From positions 9,575-73,574 of the forward strand of contig CANQXW010000002.1 in assembly GCA_947627925.1 (NCBI GenBank): DNA of 64,000 nt, written 5' to 3'. The stretch comes from an uncultured Bacilli bacterium (GTDB taxonomy: Bacteria; Bacillota_I; Bacilli_A; RF39; UBA660). Positions 23,803-56,430 of this stretch are shown here, piece by piece (within the stretch, counting starts at the first letter, position 1; the number at the start of each line of letters is the position of its first letter). The position numbers and the translations under genes are program-made. The notes beneath the pieces were generated by a model that saw only the letters and a list, made by a program, of their open reading frames with translations, did not search any database and was not told the origin of the DNA.

Positions 23803-23885
23803 TTATTATATGCTAGAATAATTTTCTAAGAATTGAGGTGCCTTATGACTAAAGAATTAGCTATGCAAATCTTAGGTTTAGAAAA
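23791..23885 (+). repeat. near-identical 5' module (promoter, RBS and first 14 codons), copy 1
   Basis: My manual alignment to 25964-26058 (offset 2173) shows 1 mismatch in 95 nt. The module includes TGCTAGAAT (an extended -10-like element), the RBS GAGGTG and ATGACTAAAGAATTAGCTATGCAAATCTTAGGTTTAGAAAA. Confidence 0.85.
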
Positions 23886-25887
23886 GGAATTCACTTTTAA
23901 AGAATTAATGGAGGCCTACCACAGAGAAAAAAATAAATATGAAAATCATTTTCACGTTTATAAAACGGAATATCCGCCAGAATTAAATGATGTGGAAAAT
24001 GCTTATAAATATTTAAAACAAAATCAATGCTATGTTATACCTACTACTGATAAAACTACGGCAAGAATTTCATATGATGAAGATGAACCTTTATATTCTT
24101 TAGATCGAAAAAATGAAGAAATAAAACAAACAATAAATCGATTTATGGAAAATTTTGCCATTGAGAAAAAGAAATTTATTGAAAGAATATCTATTTATTT
24201 AGAAATTCCTAATATGGCTTATTCCGATACAAAACAAGAGCAAATAGATTTTTTGGCACCACAATATCCGGCTTTTTTAGAAACTTTACAAAATTCAGTA
24301 AAAGTTGAAGTAGAAAGAATATTGCCACTAATTAAAGATTGTCAAGATTATAATGATTTTGCTAAATTTAAGGAAATTGCTGAAAGTTTTAAAGCTTATA
24401 TAAAGGAAATTTACAAAAAGATAATTGAAGAAGTATTAAAGGAATATAATTTAGTCAAATGGGATATGAGTGATATATATAACAATCTTTTCCCTTCTAT
24501 AAAAACCAGATATCACAATTTAATAGAAGTCTACAATTTAGTTCATAATTATATCGTACAAGCAGGACTTGTATCAAATAACAATACCTTTGAGAGAACA
24601 TGTAGAGAAATTTTTAATTACTGGATGATAAATGTTAAACATAGTAAACATTTTAGAGAAATTAGCAAACAAGATTTTCATTCAATGCGTAAACAAGTTA
24701 GAGACAAAATGAAATCTCTATATGGAGACTATTTATCTATAGATATAGCATTCCAAAACGGCTTTCAAAAATTATTTATAGAATCCCTAGACGATTTAGA
24801 AAGAGAAAAAACCGCAATGTATGCTGAATTTTACGATGTATTAGAGGAAAAACGAAAAACTTACAGAAATGAACCAGGGATTGGCTATGTTGGCGATATA
24901 GTATGGGAAAAAATACGAGAAAGAATTAGTGATAAATATGGAAAAGAATTTACGAAAGGAGCCGACAGTTATCCGGTTATTACACCGAGTGTTAGAAAAG
25001 GAATAGAGCAAATCATTGAAGAGGAACAAGATGAAATCGTAAAATTATATAATAAAAGATTTTATCAAATAAAATATTTATTAGACCACTATCCAACTTT
25101 CGCTAACTCAGATTTTGTTAACGAGGAATTAAGAACTCAGGTCTACCCTTTTGAACGTTTTATTATAAATGAAACACATGCAAATGAATTTTTTCGAATA
25201 TTAAATGAATGTGAACCTAATGCTCATATAACTAGTTTTGATTCGATTCCTTATGAAGATGAATCTATTAGTGATGAAATGCTTCATACCTTACAAAAAG
25301 AAGAAGATGATATTCTTCCTAATCGAGGCACCTATTTAGTTTATGATGGCTGTGAAATAACCTGGTTAGAAATTGAAGAAAAACTAAAACAATATCAAAG
25401 AAATGACGAGGTAACTCACGCAATTTATCAAGAGGGAATTTTATTTGCCAAAAATGGAACGTTTAATTCTGAGTATTTAGAACCACACTCATATGCTGGT
25501 GGTATTTATGTTAGCGATTTTATAGAAGAACAAAAACCAGCTATTTTAACATATCCAATAAATGGTGATGTCAAATCTGTAACTTCTATCTTTGAATATA
25601 TTTTGGATAGATTGCGAAATTTACAAGAGTTTGATGCAGTTGCCGATTATACTTTAATATCATTTAATTTAAATAGTCATAATTTATTTATTTTTTCTCA
25701 TCATCTTCCAGTATATGTCGGATTTACAAATAAAAATGAAAAAATGTATTCTAACAATCCATGCTTATTGAGGTATTTTTGTAATCAAGTTTATCAAATA
25801 CCTGATGAATCTTACTTATTTAATGGCAATATTGAGCCAAGAAAAAAAGGTTTTGATCTATTAGTGCGTCGTTATCATAACTATTAA
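23845..25887 (+). CDS. large unknown protein with a degenerate J-domain-like N-terminus, paralog 1
   Basis: I use the ATG after RBS GAGGTG; the tracked ORF begins 12 nt earlier at a TTG. MTKELAMQILGLEKEFTFKELMEAYHREKNKY...VENAYKYLKQN resembles J-domain helices but has no HPD. No other domain was recognised. Confidence 0.75.
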   Translation: MTKELAMQILGLEKEFTFKELMEAYHREKNKYENHFHVYKTEYPPELNDVENAYKYLKQNQCYVIPTTDKTTARISYDEDEPLYSLDRKNEEIKQTINRFMENFAIEKKKFIERISIYLEIPNMAYSDTKQEQIDFLAPQYPAFLETLQNSVKVEVERILPLIKDCQDYNDFAKFKEIAESFKAYIKEIYKKIIEEVLKEYNLVKWDMSDIYNNLFPSIKTRYHNLIEVYNLVHNYIVQAGLVSNNNTFERTCREIFNYWMINVKHSKHFREISKQDFHSMRKQVRDKMKSLYGDYLSIDIAFQNGFQKLFIESLDDLEREKTAMYAEFYDVLEEKRKTYRNEPGIGYVGDIVWEKIRERISDKYGKEFTKGADSYPVITPSVRKGIEQIIEEEQDEIVKLYNKRFYQIKYLLDHYPTFANSDFVNEELRTQVYPFERFIINETHANEFFRILNECEPNAHITSFDSIPYEDESISDEMLHTLQKEEDDILPNRGTYLVYDGCEITWLEIEEKLKQYQRNDEVTHAIYQEGILFAKNGTFNSEYLEPHSYAGGIYVSDFIEEQKPAILTYPINGDVKSVTSIFEYILDRLRNLQEFDAVADYTLISFNLNSHNLFIFSHHLPVYVGFTNKNEKMYSNNPCLLRYFCNQVYQIPDESYLFNGNIEPRKKGFDLLVRRYHNY

Positions 25888-25975: not shown

Positions 25976-26058
25976 TTATTATATGCTAGAATAACTTTCT
26001 AAGAATTGAGGTGCCTTATGACTAAAGAATTAGCTATGCAAATCTTAGGTTTAGAAAA
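25964..26058 (+). repeat. near-identical 5' module, copy 2
   Basis: See 23791-23885. Confidence 0.85.
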
Positions 26059-28060
26059 TGAATTTACTTTTGAAGAATTAAAAAAGGCTTATGAACAGGC
26101 TCATAATCAATATCAAATAAATCATTATCCTAACTTTATAAAAAATCATTCTGCTAAATTATATGATATTGAAAGAGCATATGAGTTTTTAAAGAAAAAT
26201 AAATGCTACTCAATTTCTCTTCGTGATACTACTAGGAATATTTTTTATGATAATGATGATAAATTTCTAGAATATTTAAAAGGAATAAACGGGGAAATAA
26301 AATTATTAATGGAAAAAATAATTAAAAATTTTCCAATAGAAAGAGAAAGTTTTATTAAGCGAATATCAATTTTTTTAAATTCTCCAAAGATAGTTTATAC
26401 AGATGATGAAGATAATCAAATTACTATATTCACGACAAAATATCCTCGATTTTTAGAACCTCTGCAAAAAGAAGTTAAAGATAAAGTCAAAAAATTAATT
26501 GCGCAGATTAAAGAATTTCAAAGTTACAATGACTTTTTAAAATATTGTGAAATTGTAGAAGAATTTAACCATTTCATAAAAGAAATTTACAAAAAAATTA
26601 TTGAATACTCTTTAAAAGCACATAATTTGGTTTGTTGGGATGTCAGCGATATATACGATAATGTTTTTTCATCTATGCAAAATAGATACCATCAACTATT
26701 TGATGTATATGATTTAATACAAGATTATATTAATGAACATAAATTAACATCTAACAATGCTTTTGAAAACAAGATGAAAGAAGTATTCGATAAATGGTTA
26801 AGGACTTCTAAACATAGTCCTCATTTTAAAGACTTAAGTGAAGAAGAACGAAAAAAAATATTTAATCATGCAAGAAATATAATGAAAGAATTATTTAAGG
26901 ATTATTTATCTGATAGCACCGCTATACAAAATGGTTTTGAAGAAATGCTTATCGAACTTTTAGATAATCTAGAAAATACTGAATCTCAAATCTATCATAC
27001 TCTTAACGAAGTAATCGACGAAAAGATGGCTACATATCAAGGAGATATTGGATTTCAATATTTTTCTTTAACCCATCCAATTTGGAGCCAAATTAGAGAA
27101 AGAATAGTAAGTGTTTATGGTAAAGATTTTGAAAAGGGGAAAAATCCCAATGTTACTCCCGCGATGAAAAAAGACATCGAGCTCATTATTGAAGAAGAAA
27201 TAACAAGACTCATAGAATTATACAATAAAAGATTCTATCAAATAAAATATTTATTAGATCACTATCCAAATTTTGCTAATTCTTCTTATGTTGAAGCAAT
27301 GTTACAAAATTTTGTTAATCCTTTTCAACCTTTTATCACAGAAGGTGCATTTGAAGATGATCTCTTAAAAAAATTAAATGAAACAGAACCAGAGGCCCAA
27401 TTAACTAGTTTTGATTCCATTAATTATATTGATGAAATTATTAGTGATGAAACACTACAAATGGTAAATCCTGATGAAGAGATATTACCTAATCGTAATA
27501 CCTACTTAGTATATGATGGGAGCGAATTTTCTTGGCTAGAAATAGAAGAAAAATTTAAACAATACAGCCAAAATGACACAGAAATTTATGCTATTCATTG
27601 CGATGGAATGCTTTTTGCCAAAAGCGGAAAATTTAATCCTAATTGTATCGAACCTGCTAGTTATGATGGTGGCTATTTTGTTAGTGATTTTAAAAGAGAA
27701 CAAGAAAGCGATATTGCTGACACCTACAAAGATTACTGGAATAATCCATCTACAACTTACACCTTTAGAGCTGCTTTAAACAAATTCAGTGTTTTAAAAA
27801 ATTTAGAACAAGTTGCTGATTTTACTTGTGTAGCTTTTAACACAAAATATCATAGTCTTTTTATCATTTCTCATCATCTACCTGTCTATATTGGCTTTAC
27901 CAATAAAGGAGAAAAAATGTATTCTAACAATCTAAGTTTATTAAGGCATTTTTGTCCATATATTCATAAAATGCCTGATGAATCTTACTTAATTGATGGC
28001 GATATTATGCCACGTCGAAAAGGTTTTGATTTATTAGTTCGTAATTACCATAACAATTAA
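26018..28060 (+). CDS. large unknown protein with a degenerate J-domain-like N-terminus, paralog 2
   Basis: The tracked ORF is 684 aa, the same as paralog 1. Shared blocks are KEIYKKIIE, LYNKRFYQIKYLLDHYP.FANS, LPNR.TYLVYDG, HHLPVY.GFTNK.EKMYSNN and PDESYL..G.I.PR.KGFDLLVR.YHN. Confidence 0.75.
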   Translation: MTKELAMQILGLENEFTFEELKKAYEQAHNQYQINHYPNFIKNHSAKLYDIERAYEFLKKNKCYSISLRDTTRNIFYDNDDKFLEYLKGINGEIKLLMEKIIKNFPIERESFIKRISIFLNSPKIVYTDDEDNQITIFTTKYPRFLEPLQKEVKDKVKKLIAQIKEFQSYNDFLKYCEIVEEFNHFIKEIYKKIIEYSLKAHNLVCWDVSDIYDNVFSSMQNRYHQLFDVYDLIQDYINEHKLTSNNAFENKMKEVFDKWLRTSKHSPHFKDLSEEERKKIFNHARNIMKELFKDYLSDSTAIQNGFEEMLIELLDNLENTESQIYHTLNEVIDEKMATYQGDIGFQYFSLTHPIWSQIRERIVSVYGKDFEKGKNPNVTPAMKKDIELIIEEEITRLIELYNKRFYQIKYLLDHYPNFANSSYVEAMLQNFVNPFQPFITEGAFEDDLLKKLNETEPEAQLTSFDSINYIDEIISDETLQMVNPDEEILPNRNTYLVYDGSEFSWLEIEEKFKQYSQNDTEIYAIHCDGMLFAKSGKFNPNCIEPASYDGGYFVSDFKREQESDIADTYKDYWNNPSTTYTFRAALNKFSVLKNLEQVADFTCVAFNTKYHSLFIISHHLPVYIGFTNKGEKMYSNNLSLLRHFCPYIHKMPDESYLIDGDIMPRRKGFDLLVRNYHNN

Positions 28061-50421: not shown

Positions 50422-50531
50422 AATAAAAAAACGCCTAATTCAGCAATTAACTACCCCAACTTAAATTCGGCAACATCCAACACAGAAATATTTGAATGTT
50501 CCTTTTTTATTGTATTCAAGTTTCCTTGAAC
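50422..50531 (-). ncRNA. candidate small RNA (orphan copy of the module at 56.8 kb)
   Basis: It lies downstream of the promoter at 50538-50567. It has the 5' hairpin UGUUCAAG-GAAA-CUUGAAUA, then AAAAAAGGAACAUUCAAAUAUU..., and ends at a GCCgAAUU...AAUUaGGC stem followed by GUUUUUUU. The boundaries are inferred. Confidence 0.3.
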
Positions 50532-50537
50532 AATAAT

Positions 50538-50567
50538 ATTATAGCATGTAATGATTTTTTCTGCCAA
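50538..50567 (-). promoter_or_regulatory. sigma-A-type promoter (extended -10), copy A
   Basis: On the minus strand, TTGGCA, an 18-nt spacer, then TGcTATAAT. Confidence 0.5.
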
Positions 50568-50596
50568 AAAAAGATACTCTATTTCTAAAGTATCTT
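50564..50596 (-). terminator. intrinsic terminator of surface-protein gene 1
   Basis: On the minus strand, AAGATACT-ttagaaatag-AGTATCTT followed by T7. Confidence 0.7.
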
Positions 50597-50731
50597 CTCT
50601 ATACTAATTTGTAAATAATTGTTTTACAATTACCACAAGTTCTGTGGAAAGGTTTGTGAGAATGAACTTTAGGGTGTTTGCGAGTCCCTAAAATTTATTT
50701 AAACAATTTATTTACCAATTTAGTAACTTAA

Positions 50732-52219
50732 TTAGTTGTTTTCTTTTCTTTTTGTAGAAAAGCTAACTGTTAAGGCACTTACTAGACCTAATCCAGCATA
50801 AACTAAGATATTATCATTAGTTTTTGGTACATCTGGCACATTAGGGTTTGTGTCTTCTGGAGTTGTTCCTGGAGTGTTTGCTTCGTCTCCAGTACTTCCT
50901 TGTTGATCTTCAGGTTTTTTATCTGGTGCTTGAGCGCCATTACCTACTACCACGTTTCCATTTTCATCAGTTGTGAATTCAGCGCTAGCTAATGCTTTAA
51001 CAAAATCATCATCTGAATATTTTTCAGAACCTAATCTTATATCATTACCAATTAATCCGCCAATGAATTCTCCACCTGAAATCATATTTTTATGTTGATC
51101 AAGGAAATTTTTATCTAAGTCTTCAATATGCATAACTGGTAAATATTTGCCGTTATTTCCTTTTCCACTTGTAAATTTGCCTCCTGAAACAGCTAATTTA
51201 GTATCTTCGGTTACTCCCTTGATATAAACAGCATATTCATTAGCCTTTTTAGCAGTAAATTCTCCACCTGAAATTGCTACATCAACATATTTTGGTCCAT
51301 TATAAGTAGTACCGTCATCATTTTGCATTGCAAGCACTGCAATTGCATGGTTAGATTCACCATCGTGAACTCCTTTTTGATGTTGTGCATCAGTAGCTGT
51401 ATAAGTACCACCAGTAATACTAACTTTACCACTTCTAACAGTAACAGCTTGAGCACCTTTTACAGTACCATTAATAGTCCAAATACCATATCCTGATGCG
51501 TATAAAGCTGTTGCTTGATTTGATGTATATGTACCAGCATTTACATTAATTACTGGTGCATTTTTATCATATGCAATAAATCCGTTAACCTTTATTACAT
51601 AGCCTTCAGTAGTCCAAGTACCATCCATATCAATTGTTGTATTCTTAGCTGTAGAAATTCTACTTGAAACCGGGCCATTAACTCCTAAAACTAAACCATA
51701 TCCAGTAGAAGTAACAGTAACATCCTTTCCAAAAGATACAGCAGTTGTAAGATCTGTATTATCATTTCCTGCAACTAATACAACAGCTGAATTATCATCA
51801 TCCGTGGTACCATTGCCTTTTAATTCAACTGAACCTTCTACCTTTAAAGTAGATCCAGCCTCAACTTTAATTAATGGAACACCTGCACCAGCAACATTTT
51901 TAATAATTCCGCTAGTTCCTGTTATAGTAACATTAGCATCTGATTTTATTATAATGCTGTGTCCATTGGCAACAGTAATAGTTTTACCATTTAAATCAAG
52001 AGTGATATCTTTATCAATATCTCTATCTACTGATAAACTTGATGCCTTTAATACTTTGACTGTATCACCTTTTTGAGCATGATCTAAAGCATCTGTTAAA
52101 GAAGTTTCACATACATCATTTAGATAAGCTTCACCCATACATTCAACTTCAGCTCTAACACCCATAGTCATTACTAACATACTTAGTAATGCGATTGCAA
52201 ACATTTTTAAACTTTTCAT
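50732..52219 (-). CDS. secreted, C-terminally anchored surface protein with beta-helix-like repeats, paralog 1
   Basis: Signal peptide MKSLKMFAIALLSMLVMTMGVRA. Repeated SGG(T/E/K)F(T/I) turns. A Pro/Glu/Asp linker. C-terminal VPKTNDN, a hydrophobic helix and KRKENN. Confidence 0.8.
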   Translation of the reverse strand: MKSLKMFAIALLSMLVMTMGVRAEVECMGEAYLNDVCETSLTDALDHAQKGDTVKVLKASSLSVDRDIDKDITLDLNGKTITVANGHSIIIKSDANVTITGTSGIIKNVAGAGVPLIKVEAGSTLKVEGSVELKGNGTTDDDNSAVVLVAGNDNTDLTTAVSFGKDVTVTSTGYGLVLGVNGPVSSRISTAKNTTIDMDGTWTTEGYVIKVNGFIAYDKNAPVINVNAGTYTSNQATALYASGYGIWTINGTVKGAQAVTVRSGKVSITGGTYTATDAQHQKGVHDGESNHAIAVLAMQNDDGTTYNGPKYVDVAISGGEFTAKKANEYAVYIKGVTEDTKLAVSGGKFTSGKGNNGKYLPVMHIEDLDKNFLDQHKNMISGGEFIGGLIGNDIRLGSEKYSDDDFVKALASAEFTTDENGNVVVGNGAQAPDKKPEDQQGSTGDEANTPGTTPEDTNPNVPDVPKTNDNILVYAGLGLVSALTVSFSTKRKENN

Positions 52220-52248
52220 CTTTTTTCCTCTTTCCTTTCTATGCGTTA

Positions 52249-52279
52249 ATTATACCCCCCCCCGTATTCGATTTGTCAA
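52249..52279 (-). promoter_or_regulatory. consensus promoter with a G9 tract inside its 19-nt spacer (gene 1)
   Basis: On the minus strand, TTGACA (plus 52274-52279), aatcgaatac+GGGGGGGGG (C-run at plus 52255-52263), then TATAAT (52249-52254). The ATG is about 30 nt downstream. The -35 lies in one arm of the 10-bp inverted repeat GATTTGTCAA/TTGACAAATC (52270-52308). Confidence 0.7.
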
Positions 52280-52544
52280 TACTTATTTTTGCTAATTTTT
52301 GACAAATCATTATTTTTTACAAAAAAGATATAATTTCTTTATATTATATTTATTATTTTATATTTTGATTACAATTTAAAAAATTATATACTATTATCGT
52401 GTAAATAAGGATCATTCTAAAATAAAAAGAGAAAATTCACTTAGTAACTTTCTCAATTTATTATAATCCTACTCCTATTTCTAGTTGTAATTTTATTACT
52501 TCTGAAATAAAAAAATTTGTATTCAAGTTTCCTTGAACAATAAT

Positions 52545-52574
52545 ATTATAGCATGTAATTACTTTTTCTGCCAA
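52545..52574 (-). promoter_or_regulatory. sigma-A-type promoter (extended -10), copy B
   Basis: TTGGCA, an 18-nt spacer, then TGcTATAAT. The GAAA-tetraloop hairpin is followed here by ACAAAUUUUUUUAUUU, so the transcript would probably be very short. Confidence 0.45.
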
Positions 52575-52603
52575 AAAAAGATACCTTATTTCTAAAGTAT
52601 CTT
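52571..52603 (-). terminator. intrinsic terminator of surface-protein gene 2
   Basis: A 7-bp stem AAGATAC/GTATCTT followed by T7. Confidence 0.65.
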
Positions 52604-52738
52604 CTCTATACTAATTTGTAAATAATTGTTTTACAATTACCACAAGTTTTGTGGAAAGGTTTGTGAGAATGAACTTTAGGGTGTTTGCGAGTCCCTAAAA
52701 TTTATTTAAACAATTTATTTACCAATTTAGTAGCTTAA

Positions 52739-54196
52739 TTAATTGTTTTCTTTTCTTTTTGCAGAAAAGCTAACTGTTAAGGCACTTACTAGACCTAAAC
52801 CAGCATAAACAAGAATGTTATCATTTGTTTTTGCAGGTTCGTCTGGTAAACGACCTGTTGTTCCGTCTGCTGGAGTGTTTGCGTCTCCAGTATTTCCTTG
52901 ATCTTCAGGTTTTGTTTGATCTTCTGGTTTTTGTTCATCAGCAGGGGTGTTAGTATTAACATCACCTTTAACTAATTCAGCAGTAAATTCTTCATCAGTA
53001 TATTTTACGCCATCTACAGTAATTTCACCAACTACACCGCCAGTGAATGTTCCACCAGTAATCATATCTTTATGATTTTCAAACATAAGTTGAGCACTAG
53101 CATTATTAACATACATAGCTGGTAATTGAGTTCCTTTAACTGAATCTTTACCACTTGTAAATGTACCACCACTGATAGCTAATTTAGATCCTTCAACTAT
53201 TTTTCCGACATATATTGCATACGCATCTTCAGTATTAGCAGTAAATGTACCACCTGAAACAATTAAATTCATATATTCTGGATGATATGTAGAACTATCT
53301 TTCTTTTCGTCTCCTAAGATAGCAATAGCATGATTACCTTCGCCATCGTGAACACCTTCACCGTTTTTTGTATTAGTAGCTGTATAACTTCCTCCACTAA
53401 TATCTACCTTACCACTTCTAACTGCAACAGCTTGAGAGCCTTTTACAGTCCCACCATCAATATCCCATTCAGCATATCCTGATGCATATAATGCAGTTGC
53501 TTTATTTGAAGTATATGTACCTTCAGCTATAGTAATCTTCACAGGATTAGAACTTTTAGTAATATATCCATTAACTTTTACAACATAAGCATCTGTAGTC
53601 CAGGTACCATTCATTGTAATATCAATATTTTGAGCCGTTGTAGTAGATCCATCACCAACAACTAAACCATGTAATTTTGAAGTAGCGACAACACCTTTTT
53701 CAAAATATACAGTAGTATTGTTAGTATTGATGTTTTTTACTCTTACAACAGCAGAGTCAATTTCAGTAGCATTATTGACTAAATTAACTGAATCTTCTAC
53801 CTTTAATGTAGCTCCAGAATTTACAGTAATCAATGATGTTTTAACTGCTGCAACATTTTCAACTGTACCAGTTCCTTTCAAAGTAAGTTTTGCACCATTT
53901 ACTATAATTCCAGCACCATTAGTAGTAGTAAATTTAAGGCTCTTGCCGTTTAAATCAATAGTAATATTTTGACTAATTTCAATGGAACTGCTTTCTTCAG
54001 CATCAGCTTCTAGTTTAATTGTATCGCCAATTCCTGCTCCTCTAATAGCTGTAGATAAATCTGCATAACAAGTAAGTTTACCATCAACTAGTCTCGAATA
54101 CTCATCGTTACTATCTGTACATGATGCAGCATGTACACCTGTTGCCATTACAGCAAATGCCATAACAGCGATTGCAAACATTTTTAAACTTTTCAT
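52739..54196 (-). CDS. secreted, C-terminally anchored surface protein with beta-helix-like repeats, paralog 2
   Basis: Signal peptide MKSLKMFAIAVMAFAVMATGVHA. Shared blocks are TWTT..YV.KVNG, GTYTSN.ATALYASGY, VRSGKV and GVHDGE.NHAIA. The C-terminus is PAKTNDNILVYAGLGLVSALTVSFSAKRKENN. Confidence 0.8.
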   Translation of the reverse strand: MKSLKMFAIAVMAFAVMATGVHAASCTDSNDEYSRLVDGKLTCYADLSTAIRGAGIGDTIKLEADAEESSSIEISQNITIDLNGKSLKFTTTNGAGIIVNGAKLTLKGTGTVENVAAVKTSLITVNSGATLKVEDSVNLVNNATEIDSAVVRVKNINTNNTTVYFEKGVVATSKLHGLVVGDGSTTTAQNIDITMNGTWTTDAYVVKVNGYITKSSNPVKITIAEGTYTSNKATALYASGYAEWDIDGGTVKGSQAVAVRSGKVDISGGSYTATNTKNGEGVHDGEGNHAIAILGDEKKDSSTYHPEYMNLIVSGGTFTANTEDAYAIYVGKIVEGSKLAISGGTFTSGKDSVKGTQLPAMYVNNASAQLMFENHKDMITGGTFTGGVVGEITVDGVKYTDEEFTAELVKGDVNTNTPADEQKPEDQTKPEDQGNTGDANTPADGTTGRLPDEPAKTNDNILVYAGLGLVSALTVSFSAKRKENN

Positions 54197-54225
54197 CTTT
54201 TTTCCTCTTTCCTTTCTATGCGTTA

Positions 54226-54256
54226 ATTATACCCCCCCCCGTATTCAATTTGTCAA
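54226..54256 (-). promoter_or_regulatory. consensus promoter with a G9 tract inside its 19-nt spacer (gene 2)
   Basis: TTGACA (plus 54251-54256), aattgaatac+G9 (C-run 54232-54240), then TATAAT (54226-54231). Confidence 0.7.
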
Positions 54257-54533
54257 TACTTATTTTTGCTAATTTTTGACAAATCACTGTTTTTTACAAA
54301 AAAGATATAATTTCTTTATATTATATTTATTATTTTATATTTTGATTACAATTTAAAATCATCATTAATTAAATACATATTTTCCAAATATTTTCATATA
54401 TTAAATAATGCAGCTTTTCTTAAAAACAGACAATTTATTAAAATTTTAGCCGCTTCGGGAGAAAATATCTCCCAAATATTTACTTTTTCGCTAAAAAATG
54501 CTAATATAAGTACAAAAAGGAGATGAAATACAT

Positions 54534-55733
54534 ATGTTAATTCAATTTAAATTTAAAAATCATAAATGTTTTTATGACGAAACTTTTTTAGACTTATTAG
54601 CCACTCAAGAAAAAAGGCATTTGGAATCGACAATTAATGTCAATGGTTATAATATCTTACCAGTAATTGCTATTCATGGAGCTAATGCTTCTGGAAAAAG
54701 TAGTGCCTTAGAGGCTTTAGATTTCATGTTTGAACTTATCAAGTATTCAAATAAAACTGATATTAAAAATAATTTACCAGCAAATCCCTTTTTATTTAGT
54801 CAAAAAAGTGCTGATGAAAATAGCGAATATGAAATCTCAATTTGCTTAGGTGATTATGAATATCGTTACGGATTCTCATTAAATAAACAACAAATTGATG
54901 AAGAATGGTTATATGTTAAAAAATTTGCTATTAATACTAAAGCTTCCCAAAAAACTATTTTTGAAAGATCAAATAATAAAGTTACCTTTGGCAAAAATTA
55001 TGCTAAATATGAAAAAACTTGGAATTTATTTGGAAAAGATATTATTATAAATACTAATAAACTATTAGTTTTAAGTAATTTAGCCATTAAAGAAGAAACT
55101 GGTATTTTAAGAGATATTTATGATTATATTTGTAAATTTGATTTTAAACTAGCTAGCGAATTTCAAAAAGCCAGTATTGATATCTTAACCCAAGACGATT
55201 CAATATTTCAAAAATTTCAAAATATTATTAATGAATTTGATCCTTGTTTACTAGGAATTGAAATTGTTCCCGTAGAAACAGAAGAGGGAGAAAAATATAT
55301 TATTAGTGGTATTCATAAAAATATTGATAATTCTAAATTACCAATTTCAATCCCTATTCATAAAGAATCTGATGGTACTATTCGTCTTTTTGGTATTATA
55401 CCAAGAATTTTAAAAAATTTAGAAAATGGGGGATTATTATGTATTGACGAAATAGATATAAAATTACACCCTTTATTATTTAAAAAAATTGTAAGTATGT
55501 ATATGGATAAAACAATTAATAAAAATAATGCCCAGTTAATTTATACTTCCCATTCAACATTTTTATTTAATAGTAATACTTTACGAAGAGATCAATTATA
55601 TCTTGTCGAAAAAGATAACACTGGGAAATCCAAGTTATACTCTTTGTCAGAATTTAGAGATTTACGAGCTGATGCCGATTATGAAAAAAAATATTTAACT
55701 GGTCAGTTCGGAGCCATTCCATATGAGAAATAG
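54534..55733 (+). CDS. ABC/SMC-like AAA_21-type ATPase (defence-associated family)
   Basis: Walker A GANASGKSS, signature-like ESDGTIRLF, Walker B LLCIDEIDIKLHP and H-loop YTSHS. It is followed by an RloB-like gene. Confidence 0.75.
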   Translation: MLIQFKFKNHKCFYDETFLDLLATQEKRHLESTINVNGYNILPVIAIHGANASGKSSALEALDFMFELIKYSNKTDIKNNLPANPFLFSQKSADENSEYEISICLGDYEYRYGFSLNKQQIDEEWLYVKKFAINTKASQKTIFERSNNKVTFGKNYAKYEKTWNLFGKDIIINTNKLLVLSNLAIKEETGILRDIYDYICKFDFKLASEFQKASIDILTQDDSIFQKFQNIINEFDPCLLGIEIVPVETEEGEKYIISGIHKNIDNSKLPISIPIHKESDGTIRLFGIIPRILKNLENGGLLCIDEIDIKLHPLLFKKIVSMYMDKTINKNNAQLIYTSHSTFLFNSNTLRRDQLYLVEKDNTGKSKLYSLSEFRDLRADADYEKKYLTGQFGAIPYEK

Positions 55734-55741
55734 GTAAAAAT

Positions 55742-56430
55742 ATGGGAAGTGACAATTTATATAAAAGACGTACTACCGAAAGGCGTCAAAGACAAGAAAA
55801 TATAAAAAAGAACGCTCTAGTAATTGGTTAATAGTATGTGAGGGAAAGAAAACAGAACCAAACTATTTTACAAACGCTATTGAAGAAATTAATAAAAATA
55901 TTGATAGTAAATATAAATTTAAAGTCAAAATTGTTGGTAAAGGAATGAATACCAAATCTTTAGTTAAAGCGGCAGATTTACAAATTGAAATTGATAAATA
56001 TTCTTATAATGAAATACCATATGGAAAAATATTTGTTGTATTTGATAAAGATAGCTTTGATGCTGATGATTTTGATGAAGCAATAAAAATGTGTGAAAAT
56101 AATGGGTATATTCCACTATGGTCTAACCAAGCAATTGAATTTTGGTTTTTATTACATTTTAATTATATATTTTCTAAAATGAATAGAACAGAATATGCTA
56201 AAAAAATTAATGAATATTTTAAAAAGAAAGGGCTTAATTATAAATATAAGAAAAATGACAAAGAAATATACAATTTACTTTGTAAATATGGTTCATTAGA
56301 AAAAGCCAAAACAAATGCTAAAAAAATTATGAAGGAGTTTCAAGGAGAAAAACCATCATTATCAGAAAGTTGTACAAATGTATATAAATTCTTTGATGAA
56401 ATTGATAGTCGATTAAAAGAATTAAAATAA
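55742..56430 (+). pseudogene. RloB-like (Toprim-like) protein gene, interrupted at an A_AAA_AAG / A6 run
   Basis: ATG at 55742 gives MGSDNLYKRRTTERRQRQENIKKNALVIG*. The -1 frame continues ERSSNWLIVCEGKKTEPNYF...VVFDKD...WSNQAIEFWFLLHF (RloB signatures) to 56430. The A-run is at 55804-55809; A7 or a -1 slip restores the frame. Confidence 0.7.

Follow-up and report, generated by a model that had tools for sequence, protein, structure and literature searches.

Organization of the locus

The stretch of DNA analysed here (64 kb, referred to below as the window) carries two tandem genes, gene 1 and gene 2, on the minus strand. Both are headed by the same conserved expression cassette, in which a run of nine G residues lies between the -35 and -10 hexamers of a predicted promoter and ends directly at the -10 hexamer. 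An earlier note on this DNA had described the promoter of gene 1 and had read its G run as a candidate slipped-strand phase switch. The features of the locus are collected in Table 1. The cassette corresponds to a repeat of about 190 bp, called D2, which begins some 100 bp before the -35 hexamer and runs into the first ten codons.

Table 1. Features of the two paralogous genes and of their promoter regions, in window coordinates
Feature	Position	Strand	Description
Gene 1	50732..52219	minus	495 aa, predicted to be exported; signal peptide 52151-52219, predicted beta-solenoid body
Gene 1 C-terminus	50735-50830	minus	VPKTN, hydrophobic segment, KRKENN
Leader of gene 1	52220..52248	minus	predicted from sequence reading and conservation; contains conserved CATAGAAAGGAAAG and Shine-Dalgarno
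Shine-Dalgarno GGAAAGAGG	52235-52227	minus	
-10 hexamer TATAAT, gene 1 promoter	52249..52254	minus	invariant in all cassette cores
G9 homopolymer GGGGGGGGG	52255..52263	minus	C9 on the plus strand; abuts the -10 hexamer; G8 or G9 in homologues, never interrupted
Non-repeat part of spacer AATCGAATAC	52264..52273	minus	3/10 positions vary among cassette copies
-35 hexamer TTGACA, gene 1 promoter	52274..52279	minus	invariant in 17/17 distinct cassette cores
Imperfect palindrome I16	52270..52308	minus	16 nt, 14/16 complementary, 7-nt gap; promoter-proximal arm contains the -35 hexamer
Expression cassette, copy 1	52191..52381	minus	repeat D2; AT-rich upstream block, promoter, leader and first ~10 codons
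AT-rich hairpin and T run	52419..52454	minus	just upstream of cassette 1; -11.9 kcal/mol, z = -2.3
Second promoter-like site	52545..52574	minus	TTGGCA-18-TGcTATAAT; inside D1, ~325 nt upstream of the gene 1 ATG
Repeat D1	50510-50809 and 52517-52816		300 bp; spans the 3' end and downstream flank of each paralogue
Gene 2	52739..54196	minus	485-aa paralogue (P0002), in tandem with gene 1; 47% identical to gene 1
Expression cassette, copy 2	54168..54358	minus	repeat D2; 98% identical to copy 1
Twin promoter of gene 2	54226..54256	minus	TTGACA (54256-54251), AATTGAATAC, G9 (54240-54232), TATAAT (54231-54226)
Twin palindrome I23	54248-54284		arm over the gene 2 -35 hexamer

The encoded protein family and its host

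Gene 2 encodes the same signal peptide and C-terminal anchor as gene 1, and the two products belong to a rare family that had only 44 relatives among 5.8 billion clustered proteins. Almost all of these relatives came from rabbit-gut metagenome assemblies and from MAGs named 'uncultured Bacilli bacterium, Lapin-...'. Neither Pfam nor NCBIfam contained a family for the proteins, and a Pfam domain was absent from all of the close relatives. Both ends of the proteins are nearly invariant across the family, the signal peptide (MKNLKMFAI...GVHA) as well as the C-terminus (x-P-(K/E/N/Q)-T-N-DNILVYAGLGLVS...KRKENN), while the middle is divergent, with about 30-50% identity between members. An architecture of conserved ends and a diverged middle, as predicted for these proteins, is typical of variable surface antigens. 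The remark in the earlier note that gene 1 fits a variable surface antigen is supported by the family, which has a conserved signal peptide, a predicted sortase-B-type anchor and a diverged middle.

The sorting motifs found in the family were VPKTN, PAKTN, NPETN, NPNTN and VPQTN, each of them followed by DNILVYAGLGLVS...KRKENN. The tail resembles an NPQTN-like sorting signal of the sortase B type, and the predicted proteins contain the complete pattern of a sortase B substrate, namely a signal peptide, an NPxTN-like motif, a hydrophobic segment and a basic tail. A lipobox, the mark of Vlp-type lipoproteins, was absent from the signal peptides, which end in VRA or VHA followed by E or A. It is reasonable to regard the predicted gene 1 product as an exported, anchored surface protein. 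A class B sortase is encoded amid genes of the family in Lapin-019 (L048:2468-3232, minus strand), with a TIGR03064 score of 191.8 bits against the NCBIfam equivalog cut-off of 153.75 bits; a sortase motif search across the 64-kb window found none. The sortase gene on L048 is flanked by larger relatives of the family (528-622 aa) with the signals VPKTS and NAQTS and an extra C-terminal domain.

An AlphaFold model based on a 30-sequence alignment was an all-beta solenoid with regular short strands (pLDDT 82.6). All of the best Foldseek matches in the PDB have a right-handed beta-helix (PL6 lyases, phage tailspikes and the adhesin PfbA of pneumococci), and they were weak, with E-values of 0.003 or worse and a TM score of about 0.3. 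Two near-clonal assemblies differed by an in-frame deletion of 23 aa in the protein encoded at the same locus (P0026 on L037 and P0029 on L081, both behind a G8 tract). This length is presumably about one rung of the beta-solenoid, and the deletion suggests that the surface protein may vary in size.

The window encodes an RNase P RNA of class B, which suggests that the organism belongs to the Bacillota. Genes for PBP, MraY, FtsW, MurG, MurB and SpoIIP were found at loci related to the window, and these peptidoglycan genes together with the class B RNase P indicate a walled Firmicute and not a Mollicute. The DNA next to the locus (window 59661-56772) was 92.7% identical over 2.9 kb to Lapin-019 bin1 (L059 3007-5896). 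This indicates that Lapin-019 bin1 is closely related to the window organism and that the setting of the surface-protein cluster is syntenic.

A G tract within perfect-consensus promoters

Re-reading of the sequence confirmed the arrangement given in the earlier note for gene 1, TTGACA, 10 nt, G9 and TATAAT on the minus strand, with both hexamers matching the consensus at 6/6 positions. The spacer was counted directly as 19 nt, nine of which form the single G run, also as described. The ATG, at 52219, lies 29 nt past the -10 hexamer, in agreement with the earlier figure of about 30 nt, and transcription of gene 1 would be expected to start near 52242 on the basis of the sequence. The impression that the G run is conspicuous in AT-rich DNA also held: the G+C content of the window is 27.5%, and only two G/C runs of six or more were found, both of them C9 on the plus strand (52255-52263 and 54232-54240) and both at the same position in two near-identical promoters.

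The window contains four perfect promoters of the form TTGACA-N15-20-TATAAT, where 0.37 would be expected; two of the four are the cassette promoters with 19-nt spacers, and the other two have spacers of 17 nt. The consensus promoter scan accepted spacers of 16-18 nt only and so missed the 19-nt cassette promoter. The occurrence of G9 in the promoter is not due to chance. Its length also lies within the range regarded as hypermutable for homopolymers, about eight or more G/C.

A conserved cassette across related genomes

Scanning one genome per species for the promoter pattern gave matches in 58 DNA stretches. The G tract was present only in those from five 'Lapin' rabbit-gut Bacilli MAGs, and the remaining matched stretches were ordinary promoters with unrelated spacers. 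Further contigs, fetched by way of homologous proteins, were added to the set that was scanned. In all, 17 distinct copies of the cassette were found, distributed over six or more related rabbit-gut Bacilli genomes, and there were multiple copies per genome: at least four in the window strain (two in the window and two on L065), five in Lapin-002, eight in Lapin-019 and three in Lapin-017. More than 30 instances were recovered from many independent assemblies and MAGs, with the tract at the same position in each.

Alignment of 22 copies showed a conserved block that begins about 125 bp before the -35 hexamer and extends to about codon 23, with sharp divergence beyond it on both sides. The first codons unique to a paralogue come about 105 nt after the tract. 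Each paralogue has its own cassette, made up of about 125 bp of upstream DNA, TTGACA, 10 nt, Gn, TATAAT, the leader and the signal peptide, and it is the mature part of the protein that has diverged. Between genomes, the proteins have diverged to about 30-45% identity, yet the cassette has been retained. The 252 kb of lineage DNA contain 41 G/C runs of seven or more, and all 41 abut TATAAT in the cassette, where 0.06 would be expected. Among the 17 distinct cores, none of the eight tract sites carried a substitution, as compared with eight of the 15 flanking sites outside the hexamers (Fisher p = 0.019). Fourteen of these cores had G9 and three had G8; neither G7 nor G10 was found. Between paralogous cassettes of one genome, the G8/G9 indel was the sole or nearly the sole difference over ~130 nt around the promoter.

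Two scans of JGI metagenomes for the cassette yielded nothing or only chance matches in unrelated DNA. A scan of viral contigs for the cassette likewise found nothing, so there is no sign that it is phage-borne. The distant homologue P0035 lies in DNA of 55% G+C without any cassette. Upstream of another distant member, P0018, there is a G+C-rich island of ~100 bp with C-rich runs (L070 7820-7915), in a genome that is otherwise 27% G+C.

Homologues from a sister genome (L079, MAG CANQEN01; positions 1-45 and 1395-1460) have no poly-G cassette and instead carry long T runs in the putative promoter. One has T9 followed by T6 within a 17-nt spacer, and T12 or more is found at the contig end; the longest T run in the window is eight. 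These poly-T promoters may represent a further type of homopolymer switch within the family, and they hint that homopolymer promoters are general to it.

Spacer length and promoter state

Promoters of the same lineage give an indication of which tract length would be active. The homologous promoter of P0016, in assemblies of the window strain, shares with the cassette its hexamers, its CATAGAAAGGAAAG leader and its signal peptide; it contains no G run and has an 18-nt spacer. A distant paralogue beside the L048 sortase is preceded by TTGACA-N12-G6-TATAAT, also with a spacer of 18 nt. In 187 kb of lineage DNA, the non-cassette promoters that matched the consensus at 11/12 or more positions had spacers of 17 nt in 17 cases, 18 nt in 13 and 19 nt in two, the last being at background level. 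Among the perfect non-cassette promoters in the same 187 kb, four had 17 nt, six had 18 nt and none had 19 nt.

With native and homologous spacers of 17-18 nt, G9 places the cassette promoter one step outside the working range, G8 places it inside, and G7 would give the optimum. By analogy, we infer that G9 is the low or off state and G8 the on state, an assignment based on what is generally known of sigma-70-type promoters and on precedents. Given the perfect hexamers and the G at -14, the 19-nt spacer may still be fairly active and the effect of length small.

Tract length in replicate assemblies

The tract length at the same locus was compared across assemblies, and none of the 13 replicate comparisons was discordant. 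All three promoters of L067/L068/L069 had G9 in three samples, as did both promoters of L065/L066 in two samples, the gene 1 promoter in the window and in L001, and the P0032 locus in three records (L076/L077/L078). G8 was found in both records of the P0015 locus (L040/L080) and in both records of the P0026/P0029 locus (L037 and L081), which do not differ over 640 bp of intergenic sequence. These samples are near-clonal, and their sequences are short-read de Bruijn consensus assemblies, a procedure that can overstate the similarity of repeated cassettes.

According to PMC7864442, a near-clonal T. pallidum isolate carried about 81% G9 and 18.6% G8 at tprL. Such a mixture would assemble as G9, and the constant consensus length therefore neither refutes nor supports switching. 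The earlier note had counted an invariant length across related strains against a switch. Invariance was found for each locus in the near-clonal samples, with none of the 13 comparisons discordant, but not between paralogues, where G8 and G9 both occur. Contig breaks at the tract were considered as a sign of length heterogeneity and dropped, because the repeated cassette explains the breaks equally well.

L001 is another assembly of the window strain and differs from the window at four positions in 7,448 bp. Three of the four differences turn the gene 1 cassette (L001 1799-1989, window 52191-52381) into the gene 2 version. Similarly, the P0032 protein was found behind cassettes with different pentamers after the -10 hexamer in two samples. 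The cassettes are perhaps homogenised by gene conversion, and cross-talk during assembly could mimic both the L001 and the P0032 patterns. As the cassette is kept similar as a whole, the conserved tract cannot be taken as fully independent support for selected mutability.

Interpretation of the tract

The data above are best accounted for if the tract is a slipped-strand contingency element in the spacer of a sigma-A-type promoter, and thus a candidate switch, an interpretation from sequence comparison that is considered moderately probable. The occurrence of the cassette throughout the family makes the locus a better candidate than consideration of a single promoter had allowed. Of the case made for a phase switch in the earlier note, one part has been strengthened, in that the tract is conserved, uninterrupted and confined to the spacer, and its length differs between paralogues (G8/G9); set against this is the concordance of the same loci in the 13 replicate comparisons.

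Under this interpretation, a cassette with G9 would hold its hexamers 19 nt apart and transcription would be low or off. Loss of one G at replication would shorten the spacer to 18 nt and turn the paralogue on, and a further step to G7 would bring it to the 17-nt optimum. Gain and loss would be independent for each copy, giving a population with mixed surface-protein repertoires, and the hairpin and T run upstream would keep each copy under its own promoter. The products would be exported, probably sortase-B-anchored, beta-solenoid proteins in a walled, low-G+C Bacilli lineage of the rabbit gut.

A more specific form of the switch would be a coordinated family with one copy on and many off, in which the on state moves by slippage and by gene conversion of cassettes. 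Three MAGs with three or more copies had exactly one G8 copy and the rest G9, which amounts to three of the five such genomes or strains. By our own estimate this pattern is compatible with chance at the observed frequency of G8, and the coordinated form is regarded as doubtful. If it were true, it would mean Mollicute-style antigenic variation in a walled, sortase-using gut commensal.

The tract could instead be a fixed part of an over-spaced or regulator-dependent promoter, with an activator or repressor acting on the palindrome or with a rigid G:C block tuning promoter strength, and the G8 alleles would then be ordinary fixed indels. The identical tract length in every replicate assembly, the G8 loci included, agrees with this, as do the presence of only two lengths and the 16-nt imperfect palindrome that overlaps the -35 hexamer. 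Spacers of 19 nt are typical of activator-dependent (MerR-type) promoters. A MerR-type promoter was nevertheless rejected: the spacer length fits, but AATCGAATACGGGGGGGGG contains no dyad, and the genes nearby are those of an AAA_21 ATPase and of a GntR/ABC operon. The missing dyad in the spacer also weighs against a fixed element in general, along with the want of an adjacent MerR-type gene, the divergent neighbour being the AAA_21 ATPase, and the left arm of the palindrome is not conserved in the Lapin-019 copies. Moreover, a static spacer needs no pure homopolymer, yet the tract is uninterrupted while adjacent sites vary, and homologous promoters without a long tract have ordinary 18-nt spacers. 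A fixed element is thus thought unlikely, although it carries more weight than the explanations that follow.

The near identity of cassettes within a genome, where coding regions differ, would also be expected if the tract had arisen once in an ancestral cassette and had spread as a neutral passenger of duplication and gene conversion. The conversion of the gene 1 cassette to the gene 2 version in three of the four differences between L001 and the window, and the different pentamers after the -10 hexamer in front of P0032, point in the same direction. A passenger would, however, hardly be retained among genomes whose proteins have diverged as far as these; a G9 run in DNA of such low G+C content should decay without selection, whereas the tract sites are the invariant ones and the flanking sites vary; and the tract sits exactly where length matters most. 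Neutral spread is accordingly given a low probability. An artefact of sequencing or assembly, either a miscalled homopolymer or a chimeric join, is hardly credible. All of the data are short-read metagenome assemblies, and several contigs start or end at or beside the tract (L024 at position 1, L076 at position 2, L040 at its end, and L021), but breaks are expected at a repeated cassette, and the many instances from independent assemblies and MAGs agree in position.

If the cassette does switch, an uncultured lineage of gut Bacilli diversifies its surface by means of a dedicated poly-G module placed on a whole family of genes. Such diversification, if true, would be relevant to the evasion of IgA and of phages in the gut. 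The pattern TTGACA-N10-Gn-TATAAT is a simple signature with which switching can be measured in metagenomic reads.

Comparison with known systems

Simple-repeat phase variation has been documented mainly in pathogens (Neisseria, Haemophilus, Campylobacter, Helicobacter, Mycoplasma and Treponema), and work on phase variation in gut commensals has stressed invertible promoters. A literature search did not turn up any homopolymer switch in the promoter spacer of genes for sortase-anchored proteins of gut Firmicutes. The mechanism proposed here is conventional; the gene family and the lineage are new.

The closest system in architecture is vlp of M. hyorhinis, together with maa2 and vmm, and the closest in chemistry are the tracts of porA, tp0126 and tpr. 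According to PMC2268961, vlp, maa2 and vmm are switched by indels in the spacer that separates the -35 from the -10 hexamer; the same paper states, citing Citti and Wise 1995, that the vlp spacer carries a simple repeat in which single-unit indels switch each gene independently. As with vlp, the predicted surface proteins described here are encoded by a multigene family in which every gene has a conserved promoter and signal-peptide cassette of its own and the mature regions vary. The tract of vlp is poly-A, whereas here it is poly-G. The Vlp proteins are lipoproteins of a wall-less host, while the present family has an ordinary signal peptide and a sortase-B-type anchor in a walled host and shows no tandem C-terminal repeats like those of Vlp. 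Switching is known for vlp, and here it is a candidate mechanism.

In porA and tp0126, as described in PMC7864442, the spacer between the two promoter hexamers contains a poly-G tract whose length relative to the 17-nt optimum sets the level of transcription, and the product is surface-exposed. The rabbit-gut cassettes likewise have a poly-G tract between the hexamers of a predicted promoter, ahead of genes for predicted surface proteins. However, porA and tp0126 are single genes in diderm pathogens, whereas at least three and up to eight paralogues per genome are found here in an uncultured monoderm gut commensal, and the cassette promoters have perfect consensus hexamers with a modal state that is over-spaced (19 nt).

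The same source reports, for T. pallidum tpr subfamily II and tprL, G tracts of about 8-10 residues, mostly G9 with a minority of G8, of which tracts of eight or fewer G are permissive (PMC7864442). These genes resemble the present ones in being a paralogous surface-protein family with a G tract in the promoter region. They differ in that the tpr tracts are located immediately before the transcription start and not clearly between consensus hexamers, and in that the products are unrelated outer-membrane beta-barrels.

On the protein side, the predicted right-handed beta-solenoid of the family resembles the sortase-anchored beta-helix adhesin PfbA of S. pneumoniae, which likewise combines its fold with a C-terminal cell-wall sorting signal. 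The anchor of the family is of the NPxTN/PKTN (sortase B) type and not LPXTG, and the fold match is weak. To our knowledge, no control by promoter repeats has been described for PfbA.

Other elements around the two genes

The palindromes over the -35 hexamers of both cassettes may be operators, and their left arm is altered in the Lapin-019 copies. The hairpin at 52419-52454 was not called by the consensus terminator scan, which called no terminators at all, and an equivalent hairpin is present upstream of an L065 cassette. It is a weak but plausible terminator that could shield gene 1 from read-through, which might come from gene 2 or from the promoter-like site at 52574-52545. The presence of that site, with so weak a hairpin separating it from the cassette, counts against the proposed switch.

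Both copies of repeat D1 contain a strong promoter-like site of the form TTGGCA-18-TGcTATAAT (50567..50538 and 52574..52545, minus strand), and immediately after it come a hairpin of 8 bp, GUUCAAGG-AAAC-UUGAAUAC, and then a T run. A promoter-plus-hairpin unit of the D1 type is also present in Lapin-019 (L037/L081). No RNA family was found at the locus with Rfam; the unit may encode a very small RNA or serve as an attenuator in front of the GntR/ABC operon.

Beside gene 2, and divergent from it, the window encodes an AAA_21 (AbiEii/OLD-like) ATPase and an RloB-like protein (54534-56430, plus strand). In other genomes, genes with a HipA_C domain lie between the paralogues (L002 and L067). These neighbours indicate that the surface family sits in regions rich in defence and toxin genes. 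The window also contains a second tandem pair of paralogues (23833-25887 and 26006-28060, plus strand), of 684 aa each, without a Pfam match or an evident signal peptide. The upstream regions and N-termini of this pair are nearly identical.
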